A stretch of DNA of 64,000 nt from Candidatus Parcubacteria bacterium (lineage in GTDB: Bacteria > Patescibacteriota > Saccharimonadia > UBA4664 > JBIOIQ01), in NCBI GenBank assembly GCA_963718875.1, contig OY970378.1, forward strand, positions 872,265-936,264, read 5' to 3'. Positions 21,952 through 60,864 of the stretch are shown in pieces (positions within the stretch are counted from its first letter, which is position 1; each line of letters starts with the position of its first letter). A program made the position numbers and the translations under genes. The notes under the pieces are model-generated. The model searched no databases. It was not told the DNA's origin and worked only from the letters and a program-made list of their open reading frames with translations.

Positions 21952-22872
21952 GTGTCAAAAGTGAGCAAAAAAAGACTTAATCCGGGATGGATTGCGTTAG
22001 GCGCTTTTCTGGCGATAGTCGATTTTGTATTGCTCATCAGATATTTGCTGCACGGTAAAAACGTTGCAGTGTTTAACCCGCAAGGGTTGATTGCTCACGA
22101 GCAACTTAGTCTTATAATCTTAGTTGTAACTGTGCTCCTTACTATTGGCATCCCTACACTTTTTTTGCTGTTTTTTACAGCCTGGAAATATAGGGAATCG
22201 AATACCAAAGCAGTTCGTGTTTCTAACGGCCATCATAGTAAGTTTCTCTTCCTTGCTATATGGCTAATCCCAACCACGTTTATGATTGTACTTGCTACTA
22301 TCATGTGGTCCGCTACCCATAGGCTGGTTCCGCAAGAATCGATTGTTTCTGACGTTAAGCCCTTGAGAATCCAGGTCGTATCAATGCGCTGGAAGTGGTT
22401 GTTTATATATCCCGATCAAAAAATTGCGACGGTCAATTTTGTTCAGATTCCGCTAAATACACCGGTCCAATTTGAATTAACCGCCGATGAAGCGCCAATG
22501 AGTTCGTTCTGGATCCCAAATCTTGGCGGCCAACTGTACTCAATGACTGGCCATGTCAACCGTTTAAACCTGATGGCTGAGACGCCCGGAGATTATCCGG
22601 GGTCGTCGGCCGAAATAAATGGGGCTGGCTTTGCCGGCATGAAATTTACCGCCCGCGCCAGTAATACGGAAGATTTTGACAGTTGGGTTCAAGAAGTAAA
22701 GCAATCTCCAGATGTGCTCGATGCTGCTACATACCAAAGTATATTAAAACCGAGCGAAAACAATCCCACCGCATTCTATTCGGCCTACGACAGCAGCCTG
22801 TATGATAAAGTGGTTATGAAATATATGGGTTCACACGCCCACAAACCAACAAAATACGAGGCGGGACACTAA
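21952..22872 (+). CDS. cyoA: Quinol oxidase subunit II (CyoA-like, no CuA ligands)
   Basis: SSFWIPNLGGQLYSMTGHVNRLNLMAETPGDYPGSSAEINGAGFAGMKFTA closely parallels E. coli CyoA ([51 protein letters not shown]). No Cys/His CuA motif. Confidence 0.85.
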   Translation: MSKVSKKRLNPGWIALGAFLAIVDFVLLIRYLLHGKNVAVFNPQGLIAHEQLSLIILVVTVLLTIGIPTLFLLFFTAWKYRESNTKAVRVSNGHHSKFLFLAIWLIPTTFMIVLATIMWSATHRLVPQESIVSDVKPLRIQVVSMRWKWLFIYPDQKIATVNFVQIPLNTPVQFELTADEAPMSSFWIPNLGGQLYSMTGHVNRLNLMAETPGDYPGSSAEINGAGFAGMKFTARASNTEDFDSWVQEVKQSPDVLDAATYQSILKPSENNPTAFYSAYDSSLYDKVVMKYMGSHAHKPTKYEAGH

Positions 22873-24962
22873 TGAAAGAACTACTTCTTGGTAAATTAGA
22901 CTGGAGCGCATTGCCACACGAATGGTTTACCATTGCTGGATCGATAGCCTTTATCGCTTTGGCATTAATTGTCGCCATTGTCATCACCCGTCAGAAACGC
23001 TGGAAATGGCTGTGGAACGAATGGCTGACATCGGTTGATCCAAAAAAGATTGGAATCATGTACTTTATTGTTGGAGGCTTTATGCTTCTGCGCGGGGGCT
23101 TGGATGCCATTATGTTATGGCTCCAGCAAGCCCTGTCAGCCGGCTCTTCACACGGCTTCCTTTCGGCTGACCATTTCCAGCAAATCTTTACAGCTCACGG
23201 TAATATCATGGTTTTCTTTGTGGCCATGGCCTTTATTTTTGGACTTATTAACTACATTGTGCCGCTACAGATTGGTGCGCGTGACCTGGCGTCACCCTTC
23301 TTGAACACCTTGGGATTTTGGCTATATGTCGGTGGAGTCCTCATGGTAAACATGTTCTTCCTCTTTGGTGGCGAATATGCCGCGACGGGCTGGCTGGCGG
23401 TTGCTCCATTGAGCGGGAAAGAATTTAGCCCAGGAGTGGGTGTGGATTATTGGATATGGAGCCTGCAGATTTCTGGTATTGGTACAACGCTCGGTGCTAT
23501 TAACTTTATTATGACGATTCTAAAAATGCGCGCACCAGGCATGAGCTTTCGAAAGATGCCGCTGTTTACCTGGGGTAGCTTATGCAGCATGCTCATGGCA
23601 GTAACCGTGTTCCCGCTGCTTACCGCAACGCTCTTCTTGATGTTTTTTGACCGGTATTTAGGCACGCACTTTTTTACGACCACGGGCGGCGGTGATCCCA
23701 TGATGTATACCAATCTTATTTGGATGTGGGGACACCCAGAGGTTTATATTTTGATGCTGCCTGCCTTTGGAGTGTTTTCTGAAGTAGTTTCAACATTTAG
23801 CCGCAAGAAAATTGCCAGCTATACGTCAAACGTACTGGGGATGATTGGCGTTTCAGCGCTGGCCCTTTCTGTGTGGTTGCATCATTTCTTTACCATGGGT
23901 GCGGGTGCAAATGTAAATGCATTCTTTGGGGTTATGACAATGATAATTGCAATACCGACATCTGTCTTGGTGTTTACGTGGATAGCTACTATGCACAAAG
24001 GGCGAATACGGTTTGATACGCCTATGCTATGGTTCCTTGGGTTTATCTCTATATTTGCAATTGGCGGCATGGCCGGTGTAATGCTGGCCGTGCCGCCGGC
24101 AGATTTCCAGCTGCACAATAGTCTGTTCCTGGTGGCGCATTTCCATTCTATGGTCATTGGCGGAGTGCTGTTTGGTATCTTTTGCGGCATAACGTACTGG
24201 TTTCCAAAGATTACGGGCTTTAAGCTTAATGAGCGGATTGGCCGGAATGCCTTTTGGTGCTGGATAATTGGATTCTGCATGTCTTTTATTCCAATGTACG
24301 TACTGGGGCTTATGGGAGCCACAAGGCGGCTTGACCATTACGACTCTTCCACTGGCTGGCAGCCATTGTTTATCCTCATGTTGATCGGTGGGATAATCAT
24401 CATGGCGGGTGTGGCTTTGCAGCTTGCCCAGATTTTAGCCAGTGTTATCCAGAAAAAACGCTTGCGCGATACAACCGGTGATCCCTGGAATGGGCGAACC
24501 CTGGAATGGGCTACCGCTTCACCGCCACAGTTTTACAATTTTACCGTTATCCCACACGTTACCACTCGCGATGCATTTTGGGAAATGAAGCAACACGGAC
24601 TACCAAAACCCGCCTATGAAGATATCCATATGCCCAAAAATACAGCTGCTGGCATATATATATCTATCTTTGCCTTCTTGGTTGGCTTTGCTTTTGTGTG
24701 GGAGATTATCTGGCTGGCTGTGGTATCGATAATTGGCATTATTGTAGTGTTTGTTATTCACGCCTTCAACGAACACAGCGAGTACATCCTTACGGCTGCA
24801 GAGGTGCAACAACTCGAGGAAGCTAGGATAAAGAAAGCCCCGGTTGCTAGCCCAAACAAGCATGACGATGCGGATGAAGATATGAGTGTTTGGAAACTTG
24901 TAAAAGTTGTGTTTGCATTCATTTGGGATGTTGTAAAAAACAAACGGTGGCGAAAATGGTAA
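22872..24962 (+). CDS. cyoB: Heme-copper quinol oxidase subunit I
   Basis: GHPEVYILMLPAFGVFSEV, WLHHFFTMGA, 12+ TM segments. Confidence 0.95.
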   Translation: MKELLLGKLDWSALPHEWFTIAGSIAFIALALIVAIVITRQKRWKWLWNEWLTSVDPKKIGIMYFIVGGFMLLRGGLDAIMLWLQQALSAGSSHGFLSADHFQQIFTAHGNIMVFFVAMAFIFGLINYIVPLQIGARDLASPFLNTLGFWLYVGGVLMVNMFFLFGGEYAATGWLAVAPLSGKEFSPGVGVDYWIWSLQISGIGTTLGAINFIMTILKMRAPGMSFRKMPLFTWGSLCSMLMAVTVFPLLTATLFLMFFDRYLGTHFFTTTGGGDPMMYTNLIWMWGHPEVYILMLPAFGVFSEVVSTFSRKKIASYTSNVLGMIGVSALALSVWLHHFFTMGAGANVNAFFGVMTMIIAIPTSVLVFTWIATMHKGRIRFDTPMLWFLGFISIFAIGGMAGVMLAVPPADFQLHNSLFLVAHFHSMVIGGVLFGIFCGITYWFPKITGFKLNERIGRNAFWCWIIGFCMSFIPMYVLGLMGATRRLDHYDSSTGWQPLFILMLIGGIIIMAGVALQLAQILASVIQKKRLRDTTGDPWNGRTLEWATASPPQFYNFTVIPHVTTRDAFWEMKQHGLPKPAYEDIHMPKNTAAGIYISIFAFLVGFAFVWEIIWLAVVSIIGIIVVFVIHAFNEHSEYILTAAEVQQLEEARIKKAPVASPNKHDDADEDMSVWKLVKVVFAFIWDVVKNKRWRKW

Positions 24963-58259: not shown

Positions 58260-58619
58260 TCAACGCGTATCAACGTACTCGCTTTGATCAATTGTTAATT
58301 TAGTCCCTGGCAAAGAAACTGTAACTGCGTCATTATTATCATCCCAGGTAACATGTATGTTCCCAAGAGAATATGGAATATTATAAACAATACCCCTATT
58401 AGGAGAAGGCCCAATAAGTAAGGTATTGCTCCCGCCTAAAAAGCCAGGAGTAGCTCGATAATAGGCACAATACTCCGTATTGGTAATACTTGGGTTTAAT
58501 TTATGACAAGAAAGCTTGGTTTGTTTGGATATGCCATATACCAAAAACTGATAAGCAATTGTTAAAAATAATCCCGTTACAATACTAAGTATTGGGAACA
58601 TAATACGCTTTAATTTCAT
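58260..58619 (-). CDS. Hypothetical secreted protein
   Basis: Signal/TM FPILSIVTGLFLTIAYQFLVYGI. Confidence 0.4.
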   Translation of the reverse strand: MKLKRIMFPILSIVTGLFLTIAYQFLVYGISKQTKLSCHKLNPSITNTEYCAYYRATPGFLGGSNTLLIGPSPNRGIVYNIPYSLGNIHVTWDDNNDAVTVSLPGTKLTIDQSEYVDTR

Positions 58620-58700
58620 TGTTACATTATAGTATTTACGGTGGCCAAATCCTATATAGATATACTACGCTTATCGTATATTGATAACATAATAATTTCT

Positions 58701-58786
58701 TGGCTGGGGAGGAAGGATTACATTCTGTATCCATCGTCGCATGCTTGAAGTAAACTTCTGTGCGTGCTCCTCGTAATCGAACCTTC
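58701..58786 (-). repeat. 86-bp copy of the 3' portion (acceptor 3' strand, T-arm, 58-nt T-loop insert) of the aberrant tRNA-Gln-like gene at 59507..59642
   Basis: 84/86 identical to 59507-59592. Begins TGGCTGGGGAGGAAGGATT (the complement of ...AATCCTTCCTCCCCAGCCA). Confidence 0.6.
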
Positions 58787-59023
58787 CGTTCGCTTAAGCT
58801 CACTCTTCCGGTTCTCATCGTATCATCCCAGCCAAAAAGACCCGAGACAAGCTCAGGTCTTTTTGGCTGAGCATGGGGTCATTATTCCAAACTTTTGACG
58901 ACCTAGAAATCTATTATAGATAAAGAAAAATATGGGTGTGAGCCATACCATCTTATGTTAAACAGCACTCGGTTTACTTACAGCTAATTGTACTTGAAAT
59001 GGAATAGCTGTATTCTGTAAATT

Positions 59024-59419
59024 ATGAACCGATTTACTGCATGGACCGGGGAAAACCTCTCGCAAGAGTTAGACATACAAATAGAAGATAATAAGATTAG
59101 CTTGTTGCAGACAGACAGCCAGCTACTAAACTCCGACCTGGCTATAATTAAGATTTATAAACATAACGGGCGCGGAGTCCTCTACGAAATTGCCGACAAT
59201 AAGAAAAGTATTTGGCTTACTTTTGCTCAACCTTGGCTTCGAAATCTTAAGGATCTGATACTGCAAATTCGGAGAGAACGTAGTATGAATAAACGGTTTG
59301 AGAGAGCGATTACAGAGAACGGTGGCAATATAACCGCAAGACGATCAATCTCTCAATTCATAGTACATATAGTCAGTTTATTGTTAGTATTACTTGTTAT
59401 CTTGATGTTCACAAATTAG
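59024..59419 (+). CDS. Hypothetical protein with a C-terminal TM helix, located between the tRNA-fragment repeats
   Basis: 131 aa, no motif. Confidence 0.35.
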   Translation: MNRFTAWTGENLSQELDIQIEDNKISLLQTDSQLLNSDLAIIKIYKHNGRGVLYEIADNKKSIWLTFAQPWLRNLKDLILQIRRERSMNKRFERAITENGGNITARRSISQFIVHIVSLLLVLLVILMFTN

Positions 59420-59506
59420 TTTTGATATTAGCATAAAATCAGTAACTTAGTGGAACAATGCTGGCTGGGGAGAAGGTACTATGGTGGTCGATCAATACAC
59501 TCTTTT

Positions 59507-59642
59507 TGGCTGGGGAGGAAGGATTACATTCTGTATCCATCGTCGCACGCTCGAAGTAAACTTCTGTGCGTGCTCCTCGTAATCGAACCTTCGATCTCTT
59601 GAGCCAGAATCAAGCGCCTTATCCGCCTTAGGCGGACCACTC
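59507..59642 (-). pseudogene. Aberrant tRNA-Gln(CUG)-like gene: intact anticodon arm and T-stem with compensatory changes relative to the neighbouring tRNA-Gln, 58-nt insertion inside the T-loop, non-pairing acceptor and irregular D-arm
   Basis: Minus strand reads ...GGCG-CTTGA-TTCTGGC-TCAAG-AGATC-GAAGG-TTCGA-[58 nt]-AT-CCTTC-CTCCCCA-G-CCA. The 5' part GGAGTGGTCCGCCTAAGGCGGATAAGG cannot pair with the 3' acceptor strand. Confidence 0.5.
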
Positions 59643-59656
59643 CTTAATTGCTCATT

Positions 59657-59731
59657 TGGCTGGGGAAGTAGGATTCGAACCTACGATCTCCTGAGCCAGA
59701 ATCAGGCGCCTTACCGCTTGGCCATTCCCCA
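59657..59731 (-). tRNA. tRNA-Gln (anticodon CUG), CCA encoded
   Basis: TGGGGAA-TG-GCC-AAGCGGTAA-GGC-G-CCTGA-TTCTGGC-TCAGG-AGATC-GTAGG-TTCGAAT-CCTAC-TTCCCCA-G-CCA. Near-identical to E. coli tRNA-Gln in the D-arm and anticodon loop. U1-A72 pair. Confidence 0.9.
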
Positions 59732-59767
59732 GCAGATGAGCAATTACAATTCCAGATTATTTAAGAA

Positions 59768-59983
59768 TTACCGGTCTTTACCAGTCTTTAAAAAACTCTC
59801 AAGCTTTTTTGCTTCGGATTTTGTTTCATATCTTTCCGAATAAACCAGCTTCCAGGGACCACGATTCTTAGTATAGCGAGACTTACCTTCGTTATGCCAG
59901 ATCAGCCTAACTTCCACTTGCGAAGAATAGCCAACATAGTGCGTTCCTAAGGATTCACTTTTCAAAACATAGGTAGTAAACAT
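59768..59983 (-). CDS. GIY-YIG nuclease family protein (YhbQ/UPF0213-like)
   Basis: FTTYVLKSESLGTHYVGYSSQVEVRLIWHNEG...PWKLVYSERYETKSEAKKLESFLK matches the GIY-YIG core. The listed ORF extends to 60139 but the domain starts at MFTTYV. Confidence 0.65.
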   Translation of the reverse strand: MFTTYVLKSESLGTHYVGYSSQVEVRLIWHNEGKSRYTKNRGPWKLVYSERYETKSEAKKLESFLKTGKDR

Positions 59984-60162
59984 TTTTAGTTTCTTTTCTA
60001 GATTCCCTACCCGAAGCGCCAAGCCAGGCAATGGTTGGGCTTGGCTTTCCAATTCAGCCTTCGTAGCCACTTCGGCGAAGTAGGCTAGGGAATGACAGAT
60101 ACGGTGGTTTGAGGATTCACAGTCAAGCCTTAAACCCAAGAACTGGGTAATTGTACCTGTTT

Positions 60163-60468
60163 TTAGGATAGTTTGGCAATTATTAGCGCTTGGATTTGCT
60201 GGCGCTGGAGTGGGCCAAAGGAGCGGCTATCGGTGCTTTGGGTAAGATTGTCACCTTCAAGCCACACAGTGTTAGCATAAATTTTTGTAATGCGTTTAAT
60301 AATTGTGCGTTCCGAAGTTGCTGCAACTACCACTTGGCCAACTTTAAAGCGCGACCATCTTGCCCCAAGCAAAACATCGCCGGAATTATAGGCTGGAAGC
60401 ATGCTGCCACCCTGGACTCGGTAAAGTTTTACCGGAAACCACTTCATATAGTTCCTCGCTGACGACAA
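60163..60468 (-). CDS. sodX: S26/S24-type peptidase; nickel-SOD maturation protease (SodX-like)
   Basis: GGSMLPAYNSGDVLL and KRITKIYANTVWLEGDNLTQSTDSR motifs of the signal peptidase-like fold. Immediately downstream of sodN. Confidence 0.7.
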   Translation of the reverse strand: MSSARNYMKWFPVKLYRVQGGSMLPAYNSGDVLLGARWSRFKVGQVVVAATSERTIIKRITKIYANTVWLEGDNLTQSTDSRSFGPLQRQQIQALIIAKLS

Positions 60469-60864
60469 TTATGTTTTGGTTTCGGCAAAGACGGTGGCTA
60501 TCTCGTCTATCAGATCTAGTAGCTTTTGACCTTCAGCAGGATCAACCGTTTTTTTGGTAGTACCCGCTTGTTTGGTGGCGCGCCAAAATAAATCGTGCAG
60601 CTGGGGGTATTTTTCCACATGTTCTGGCTTAAAATAGTCGGTCCACAATACCCATAAATGATGTTTTACTAATTCCGCCCGAGTCTCTTTGATGATAATA
60701 GCCCGCACTTTGTCCTCGGTACTTAAACCATCGTATTTTTCCATAATTTTCGCGATTGACTCGGCTTCGATGCGTGCCTGGGCAGGGTCGTATACACCAC
60801 ATGGCAGGTCACAATGGGCATAAACTGTTTGGGCCGGCAGTTTTGCAATTAGCTGTTTGATCAT
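60469..60864 (-). CDS. sodN: Nickel superoxide dismutase precursor
   Basis: Leader MIKQLIAKLPAQTVYA followed by the Ni-hook HCDLPCGVYDP. Length about 130 aa. Confidence 0.9.
   Translation of the reverse strand: MIKQLIAKLPAQTVYAHCDLPCGVYDPAQARIEAESIAKIMEKYDGLSTEDKVRAIIIKETRAELVKHHLWVLWTDYFKPEHVEKYPQLHDLFWRATKQAGTTKKTVDPAEGQKLLDLIDEIATVFAETKT

Follow-up and report, generated by a model that had tools for sequence, protein, structure and literature searches.

The subject here is the downstream flank of a glutamine tRNA gene, tRNA-Gln(CUG), found within a stretch of DNA of 64,000 nucleotides (nt), i.e., positions 872,265 to 936,264 of contig OY970378.1, which as a whole is referred to as ‘the window’. 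This gene is the sole tRNA detected in the window, at 59657-59731 on the minus strand and by ARAGORN and Rfam alike, and it is both functional and the anchor of the locus. Continuing in the direction of the tRNA, there is a 14-nt spacer, then a hairpin (TCCGCCTAAGGCGGA), and then a partial copy of a tRNA-Gln, with 58 nt of additional sequence, here described as a ‘plug’, filling its T-loop. A second plugged piece lies further along, and between the two plugged pieces is an open reading frame (ORF) lacking relatives, that is, an ‘ORFan’. On the other side of the tRNA is a predicted gene for a very small nuclease of the GIY-YIG type. The features on which the argument turns are as follows.

59768..59983, minus strand: minimal GIY-YIG nuclease gene (predicted), 71 amino acids (aa), UPF0213/SLX1-like, 36 nt upstream of the tRNA (Pfam PF01541, E = 2.7e-12).
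59657..59731, minus strand: intact tRNA-Gln(CUG) with encoded CCA (ARAGORN; Rfam RF00005, 68.5 bits).
59622..59636, no strand assigned: hairpin TCCGCC-N3-GGCGGA on the D-arm side of the partial copy, in place of a D-arm (one occurrence in the window versus 0.06 expected).
59593..59621, minus strand: tRNA-Gln-derived segment consisting of the D-stem 3′ strand, the whole anticodon arm, and the variable region, of another allele (alignment).
59503..59592, minus strand: repeat unit a, i.e., T-stem 5′ strand, TTCGA, 58-nt plug, AT, T-stem 3′ strand, acceptor 3′ strand, G, CCA, and AAAA (repeat search; sequence).
59525..59582, minus strand: the 58-nt T-loop plug of unit a, made up of a 29-nt conserved core hairpin at 59545-59573, GCACGCACAGAAGTTTACTTCGAGCGTGC, and a second, non-conserved hairpin, GGATACAGAATGTAATCC (folds).
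59461..59475, minus strand: 15-nt tRNA-Gln 3′-end fragment, CCTTCTCCCCAGCCA (repeat search; decamer count; p = 0.017).
59024..59419, plus strand: ORFan of 131 aa, here ORF131, with a C-terminal hydrophobic stretch, bracketed by units a and c (protein and family searches).
58697..58786, minus strand: repeat unit c, a second plugged copy running from T-arm to CCA, with its plug at 58719-58776 and the core of that plug at 58739-58767 (repeat search, 97%).

All of the features that had been noted in a first-pass annotation of this DNA, made from the letters alone, are present where it had placed them, and on the minus strand, which it had left unspecified. The intact tRNA-Gln(CUG) thus is as had been described, and the T-loop of the partial copy is indeed broken after TTCGA, by exactly 58 nt, which lie between TTCGA and ATCC. 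The 5′ acceptor and D region of this copy had been seen as noncanonical, and in fact no acceptor-stem/D-arm fold is found on its 5′ side, with the TCCGCCTAAGGCGGA hairpin (59636-59622) occupying that spot. Its 3′ end consists of the 3′ T-stem strand, the 3′ acceptor strand, the discriminator, and the CCA, reaching down to 59507. The partial copy, that is, spans tRNA positions about 22 to 76, 14 nt downstream of the intact tRNA-Gln, and is a nonfunctional duplicate in which two loops or arms are plugged, on the D-arm side by the TCCGCC hairpin and in the T-loop by the 58-nt, two-hairpin module.

As to where this copy came from, its stems are informative. The anticodon stem reads CCTGA/TCAGG in the intact gene versus CTTGA/TCAAG in the partial copy, and the T-stem reads GTAGG/CCTAC versus GAAGG/CCTTC, so that each stem does differ by one compensatory pair, as had been noticed at first pass. 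The conclusion drawn there, i.e., that such pairs imply selection upon a paralog, does not survive alignment, as the segment from D-stem to variable region, TAAGGCGCTTGATTCTGGCTCAAGAGATCG, matches at 30/30 positions the functional tRNA-Gln of a Saccharibacteria metagenome-assembled genome (MAG; locus L001) and differs from the resident gene at 2. The covariation therefore arose in a working tRNA lineage and was subsequently inherited. On the strength of that alignment, the partial copy is a fragment of another tRNA-Gln allele, whether from outside or instead from an older, displaced resident, rather than a paralog under selection.

Units a and c form a direct repeat of 90 nt, 97% identical and offset by 806 bp, with two internal differences, each G-to-A and each in the 3′ half of the core hairpin. 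The 86-bp copy of 98% identity that had been reported at 58701-58786 lies inside this somewhat longer repeat, with 84/86 positions identical. Each half of the plug occurs exactly 2 times in the 64 kb (expected, 0.00). The decamer TGGCTGGGGA, a 3′-end motif, is found four times and on one strand only (at 58701, 59462, 59507, and 59657; expected, 0.05), a count which also bears out the short copy that had been described at 59461-59475. Unit c is located upstream of an ORF at 58260-58619 on the minus strand. Between the units, ORF131, on record from a 1.19-Mb contig, finds only itself among 5.8 billion proteins, along with no Pfam, NCBIfam, PHROG, or PADLOC hit, and it is a candidate for the cargo of an 806-bp insertion. 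Short-read contigs from run ERR12037361, which represent an independent assembly, end at 59592, the edge of unit a, and at 58729, inside unit c; they break at both units, as would be expected of an assembly that meets a real repeat. One of these contigs comes to its end precisely at the outer edge of unit a, not about one k-mer into the unit, which might reflect strain heterogeneity at that junction.

The core of the plug is found elsewhere as well. When metagenomes were scanned with a 20-mer of the core, only two contigs came back, L007 and L008, which are strains of one organism (97% identity 5′ of the tRNA). In both, the core lies inside a T-loop insert, following TTCG, of a 3′ fragment of tRNA-Glu(UUC) that itself is found just downstream of an intact tRNA-Glu. 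The site of plugging in these tRNA-Glu fragments is one base earlier in the T-loop than in the Gln copy of the window. Across all of the plug copies (5/5), GCACGCACAGAAGTTTACTTC is invariant, while the Gln and Glu inserts are otherwise unrelated; each ends in a second hairpin, which differs between the two. In L008 there is a single unit, between the tRNA and a pyruvate kinase-like gene. In L007, two copies of the unit (103 nt, 97%) flank instead 1.4 kb containing two small ORFs, and L007 possesses also a third type of unit, in which another plug of two hairpins fills the T-loop at that same position, plus a plain 21-nt 3′ fragment. Given a single unit in L008 versus 1.4 kb bracketed by units in L007, the plugged unit is, on this comparison of sequences, a junction at which DNA is gained or lost. 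Taken together, the direct 3′-end fragments, the 90-nt repeat surrounding the ORFan, and the L008/L007 pair bear the mark of insertion by recombination at the 3′ end of a tRNA.

Certain other resemblances to the plug have been set aside. Matches to an 18-mer of the core, in two Microviridae capsid genes, are chance matches within coding sequence, and viral scans using the insert junctions returned nothing. The short motifs TACTTCG, shared between plug types, and GTGCTTGAAG, shared between L023 and unit c, are short and differ in orientation, and are not claimed. A separate curiosity of L007 is a perfect 33-bp tandem duplication (837-902) in a small ORF between the tRNA-Glu units, resulting in a repeat of the peptide ANDDRKRAVWR.

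Neither the GIY-YIG gene nor the plug as a module conserved elsewhere had been picked up by the first-pass annotation. The gene starts with the ATG at 59983 rather than with the TTG at 60139, its N-terminus, MFTTYVLKS, aligning with those of homologues. The catalytic domain is present with its conserved catalytic residues, as one would look for in a Seg-like homing endonuclease, that is, Y5, Y16, G18, R26, H30, and E62 are invariant in eight aligned sequences. A profile search of the Protein Data Bank places the protein with the UPF0213 structures BH0048/EF2693 (1zg2, E = 9.7e-14; 1ywl, E = 2.4e-12) and with SLX1 (E = 2e-5), which, along with its being a stand-alone domain, makes it a member of the minimal, UPF0213/SLX1-like GIY-YIG group. 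Homologues number 4,634 proteins at E <= 1e-8, with those that are named coming from MAGs of Patescibacteria, Saprospiraceae, Lewinellaceae, and Acidobacteria. Viral-contig scans for relatives returned none.

What recurs alongside these homologues is a tRNA gene and a second, altered copy of one. With L021/22 set aside, the GIY-YIG gene of each locus fetched has a tRNA gene as its neighbour or else the 3′ fragment of a tRNA (L025) or nothing but tRNA-like copies (L018), and each of these loci also contains a tRNA duplicate that is plugged or has an arm replaced. Arrangements nonetheless vary. In L012-L016 and L023 the order is plugged tRNA-Gln copy, GIY-YIG gene, and intact tRNA-Gln, with hairpins occupying the anticodon loop and T-loop, as well as the D-loop in the case of L023. 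In L011 it is tRNA-Ser, GIY-YIG gene, and the plugged 3′ part of a tRNA-Ser, and in L025, an IMG/VR contig, it is tRNA-Arg 3′ fragment, GIY-YIG gene, and tRNA-like copy. L017, L019, L020, and L024 combine tRNA-Arg(ACG) with a GIY-YIG gene and a tRNA-like copy of which the anticodon arm has been replaced. L018 has tandem tRNA-like copies with a GIY-YIG gene and no intact tRNA, and both L018 and L020 display tandem repeats of the pair of tRNA-like copy and GIY-YIG gene.

A hairpin of TCCGCC/GGCGGA with variable triloop, i.e., the hairpin that in the window stands in for a D-arm, is located no more than 132 nt from the GIY-YIG gene in 13/15 loci, in tRNA-Gln as well as tRNA-Arg contexts. One variant is compensatory, TTCGCC/GGCGAA. 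In the 232 kb of sequence fetched, this hairpin is seen away from a GIY-YIG gene once only. That lone distant hairpin, of variant TCCGCCAAAGGACGGA, is at L013 1397-1412, 1.2 kb from the GIY-YIG gene and between ABC-transporter and FtsX genes.

Two further observations concern these same loci. In L015, the tRNA-Gln (463-536; encoded CCA) differs at two positions from those of its sister contigs, and an element with a large serine recombinase (PF07508; 1839-3203) follows that tRNA-Gln, with no displaced tRNA fragment at its far end within the contig. On the plugged tRNA-Arg-like copies of L020 (2242-2321) and L019 (2508-2582), ARAGORN reports a ‘tRNA-Ser(tga)’, for which it takes the hairpin to be an anticodon stem of 4 bp (loop, CCTGAGG) and turns the 3′ strand of the old anticodon into a long variable arm. 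Near such a copy it reports as well a ‘tRNA-???’ with a 2-nt anticodon.

The reading that is favoured here, with a confidence only somewhat better than even, is that a recombination hot spot lies on the downstream side of a working tRNA-Gln(CUG), its anchor, and that the plugged tRNA duplicates found there are linked to a minimal GIY-YIG element associated with tRNA genes. We infer the mechanism of that hot spot, and likewise the use of the units by recombination, from sequence. The 90-nt plugged piece, from T-arm to CCA, would be a portable unit. Recombination of the Campbell type, between the unit in the chromosome and a unit on incoming circular DNA, would have inserted the 716-bp ORFan segment and in the process duplicated the unit, either by way of the 90-nt homology or by way of a recombinase acting in trans. 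The T4 endonuclease SegB recognises the T-loop DNA motif GGTTCRANTCC (PMC2330249), and the plugs of the window and of the tRNA-Glu fragments split that motif. Plugs may be kept, that is, since they split this motif or instead since they cut long homology to the real tRNA, with the plugged duplicate and the element thereby shielded from cleavage or from loop-out deletion. The GIY-YIG nuclease, lastly, would supply the breaks that drive duplication and exchange.

A number of points weigh against this picture. The GIY-YIG proteins, of 71 aa in the window and 79-89 aa among the homologues, consist as aligned of the catalytic domain only and lack a DNA-binding domain, leaving sequence-specific homing unproven. 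The T-loop of the intact tRNA is unplugged, such that a simple ‘immunity’ falls short, and the tRNA-Arg type keeps its T-arm and has its anticodon arm replaced instead. The 58-nt type of plug is known from three loci only, two of which, L007 and L008, carry the plug module but, over the 3.5 kb at hand, neither a GIY-YIG gene nor a TCCGCC hairpin; the two phenomena therefore may be separate and merely meet in the window. No recombinase or transposase domains were found among the ORFs scanned against Pfam, these being the ORFs at 38-64 kb of the window plus the ten largest at 1-28 kb. Nor can the 178-nt leader of the GIY-YIG gene in the window be taken as an eroded pseudo-tRNA-Gln, as its alignment has p = 0.14 versus shuffles and a control region does equally well.

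What, then, might the plugged copies otherwise be? The first-pass annotation had offered a T-loop intron as one possibility, under which the tRNA-Gln gene has a non-canonical intron and yields, once spliced, another functional tRNA. The insert is indeed placed cleanly in the T-loop and can form hairpins, and tRNA introns are plentiful in Patescibacteria (PMC13011429). Those introns, however, are group I and are located in the anticodon loop (PMC13011429), and a group I intron is ruled out in any case, 58 nt being far too short for the ribozyme. The exons of the partial copy, furthermore, give no complete cloverleaf, with 5′ acceptor strand and D-arm missing, while unit c has no tRNA 5′ part whatsoever, its 5′ side being unrelated to tRNA. 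On this locus no second tRNA is reported by Rfam at E <= 10 or by ARAGORN, whether by default or with its intron option, the latter being the type of detection that had been proposed as a check. Even with the 58-nt insert removed, the copy is not called by ARAGORN at its default threshold, and 80% stringency only forces a spurious ‘tRNA-Leu(taa)’, an artefact in which the TCCGCC hairpin is taken to be the anticodon arm. Rfam intron families at E <= 10 have no match on the locus, and the insert junctions, by inspection, fall within one continuous GATTAC/GTAATC helix with no bulge-helix-bulge. An intron is hardly credible under these circumstances, and the plugged copies are recombination debris or landing pads rather than intron-bearing tRNA. 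Very improbable as well is that a tandem duplicate of tRNA-Gln has simply decayed at random, with insert and second repeat as chance products of slippage. The copy does lie just 14 nt after the intact gene and plainly is nonfunctional, but it is a different allele, the 90-nt repeat brackets unique DNA, and plug core and hairpin alike are found again in genomes that are unrelated.

It is unlikely, if by no means outlandish, that the fragments are ordinary attachment-site (att) scars. A tyrosine or serine integrase, located elsewhere or since lost, would have integrated repeatedly at the tRNA-Gln 3′ end, leaving fragments and plug as decayed attL/attR, with GIY-YIG gene and hairpin as bystanders. 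Displaced 3′ fragments are indeed found downstream of the intact tRNA in direct orientation, at 59507-59642, 59461-59475, and 58701-58786, all on the tRNA strand. Successive integrations, too, are well documented as leaving partial tRNAs (bioRxiv 10.1101/2020.12.28.424599). Integrase genes adjoin tRNA plus GIY-YIG gene in L019 and, in L021/22, just the GIY-YIG gene, the tRNA-Gln of L015 has a large serine recombinase next to it, and the tRNA-Arg fragment of L025 begins in the anticodon loop, as do classical att sites. Decay cannot, though, account for a 29-nt core at nearly the same T-loop position of two tRNAs, in different organisms and among unrelated flanks, nor for one and the same 12-base stem of a hairpin turning up across many lineages in duplicates, whether in their D-loop, anticodon loop, or T-loop, and the scanned ORFs of the window include no integrase gene. 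The first-pass interpretation, of serial site-specific integration and excision leaving att-like scars, is supported in part, by the 3′ fragments, the bracketed ORFan, and L008/L007, but its site-specific aspect is not borne out, with no recombinase among the ORFs scanned. Quite unlikely, judging from sequence comparison, is that the plugged copies are functional RNAs for which the tRNA body is a scaffold showing hairpins, and which serve as partner, regulator, or antidote of the GIY-YIG protein (as in type III toxin-antitoxin systems, or guide-like) or as an mRNA processing signal. The hairpin stem is kept across distant lineages, with variable triloop and the one compensatory variant, and the tRNA-like copies of L018-L020 and L024 retain D-arm, T-arm, acceptor, and CCA, those of L018 scoring 39.5 bits as tRNA. 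In addition, plugged copy and GIY-YIG gene directly touch or overlap, at the start codon of the gene in L012 and L023 and at its stop codon in L018-L020, where that codon is part of the D-loop of the tRNA-like copy. Core-stem substitutions can be accommodated as G-U pairs on one strand only, the one antisense to the tRNA, and this strand has the lower predicted folding energy as well, though these events are too few to count. The copy in the window, by contrast, lacks its 5′ half and is found downstream of the tRNA rather than beside the ORF. The units have weak folding z-scores (-0.7 to -2.6), plug positions are imprecise, and no Rfam family matches.

Several more specific candidates were tried and rejected. 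An integron gene cassette with attC site is not indicated, as the 90-nt unit on reading lacks RYYYAAC...GTTRRRY boxes and no integrase is present among the ORFs scanned. A miniature inverted-repeat transposable element or insertion sequence within the T-loop is not indicated either, since Gln- and Glu-type plugs share the internal 29-nt core alone, with both ends differing, and no further copies exist in the window. A hammerhead or twister ribozyme, a permuted transfer-messenger RNA, a T-box, and a homing spacer of a CRISPR-associated transposon each lack their defining motif or any Rfam hit.

The hot-spot reading can be extended, tentatively and with distinctly less confidence. Minimal GIY-YIG genes and hairpin-plugged tRNA copies may together constitute a widespread composite element which colonises tRNA genes, with the plugs functional and the units serving as portable pads for small cassettes. 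The plugs, in that case, would either immunise the duplicate against the nuclease as well as against homologous loop-out, or provide a tRNA-scaffolded RNA partner of the nuclease. Going by sequence matches, hosts would appear to be Patescibacteria, with members of the protein family named also from Bacteroidota and Acidobacteria MAGs.

Two additional features of the locus are less central.

58810..58871, plus strand: inverted, degenerate tRNA-Gln 3′-end fragment (58810-58834) fused to a terminator-like hairpin (58829-58869; stem includes CAGCCA) (inverted-repeat search; local alignment p = 0.03, marginal).
59645-59658 / 59733-59746, no strand assigned: 14-bp inverted repeat, tRNA leader versus trailer (repeat search, 93% complementary).

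The latter, TAATTGCTCATTTG / CAGATGAGCAATTA, surrounds the intact tRNA-Gln and adds 14 bp to its acceptor stem. This repeat could serve as a stem for processing, or it could be a sign that the tRNA arrived as a cassette. In Rfam searches of the whole window, and of the locus at E <= 10, the intact tRNA is the only match besides spurious microRNA and plastid families, which are matched to the terminator hairpin or to the strand antisense to the tRNA. BLAST of 58690-59660 against phage and plasmid sequences gave zero matches.

The genes surrounding the locus include those for nickel superoxide dismutase and its peptidase, hydrolases, transporters, and cytochrome oxidase; more precisely, nickel superoxide dismutase is at 60469-60864, its maturation peptidase at 60163-60468, and cytochrome oxidase subunit I at 22872-24962. 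The genome itself probably is Saccharibacteria-like. In a scan of genome contigs, a neighbouring gene that is beta-lactamase-like has its best relatives, at a distant 52-54% identity, in Candidatus Saccharibacteria MAGs. Among these relatives, one locus only has a tRNA-Gln, and this MAG contig, L001 (1-89), stops 14 nt past the 3′ end of its tRNA-Gln(CUG), a break to be expected if there are repeats or strain variation downstream there too. The Saccharibacteria lineage usually is described as very reduced in metabolism, and here a genome with its nearest relatives in that lineage carries oxygen-handling genes.

It is routine to find partial copies of tRNAs at integration hot spots, and typically these are dismissed as scars. 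The scars considered here, though, have a regular anatomy, i.e., tRNA stems are kept, loops are filled with conserved hairpins, and a tiny GIY-YIG family keeps them company. It is upon the link between GIY-YIG genes and plugged copies that the main interest hangs. If that link is causal, then it would provide a first biological context for the UPF0213/SLX1-like bacterial proteins, as well as a way for a selfish gene to occupy an essential tRNA locus without destroying it. It could explain, too, how small cassettes are exchanged in streamlined genomes that have few obvious mobile-element genes, such as those of Saccharibacteria. On a more practical level, plugged copies break short-read assemblies and are at risk of being annotated as odd tRNAs, as with the one that ARAGORN calls a tRNA-Ser.

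Both partial tRNAs at hot spots and GIY-YIG genes within tRNA clusters are already known. In the open-access literature, nothing was found on loop-plugged tRNA duplicates, on a cross-phylum hairpin travelling with a minimal UPF0213-type nuclease, on a T-loop module common to Gln and Glu fragments, or on units bracketing tiny cassettes. Among known systems, islands of the Islander type and the tycheposons of Prochlorococcus are alike in having an intact tRNA followed by direct partial copies, small bracketed segments, and content that varies among strains. The present locus differs in that no integrase was found at it, in that its unit carries a conserved 58-nt T-loop plug, and in that the segment bracketed is of just 716 bp with one ORFan. 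Intron-containing tRNAs, whether archaeal with bulge-helix-bulge or of group I in Patescibacteria, likewise have extra sequence within tRNA loops, the T-loop included, and the host here probably is itself a patescibacterium. The interrupted copies of the locus are incomplete, however, always have an intact isoacceptor adjoining, and are without splice motif or ribozyme core.

As to the nuclease, the stand-alone UPF0213/SLX1-like GIY-YIG proteins BH0048 and EF2693 possess the same minimal architecture and are its best matches of solved structure. This minimal form was described by Dunin-Horkawicz et al. in 2006 (PMC1564403), where tRNA comes up only via fusion to a TrmH-like methyltransferase; a neighbourhood of tRNA genes or plugged tRNA copies are not mentioned there. 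The other point of comparison is SegB of phage T4, a free-standing GIY-YIG homing endonuclease encoded within a tRNA gene cluster, cloned from a 687-bp fragment and possessing a 27-bp recognition site (PMC2330249). SegB drives the inheritance of itself along with flanking tRNA genes (PMC2330249), and SegB-driven segmental amplification is the subject of a 2026 paper (PMC13096335). The likeness is that of a GIY-YIG gene found among tRNA genes. The differences are that here the catalytic domain stands alone, as known from sequence, and that its setting is a bacterial chromosome instead of a phage.

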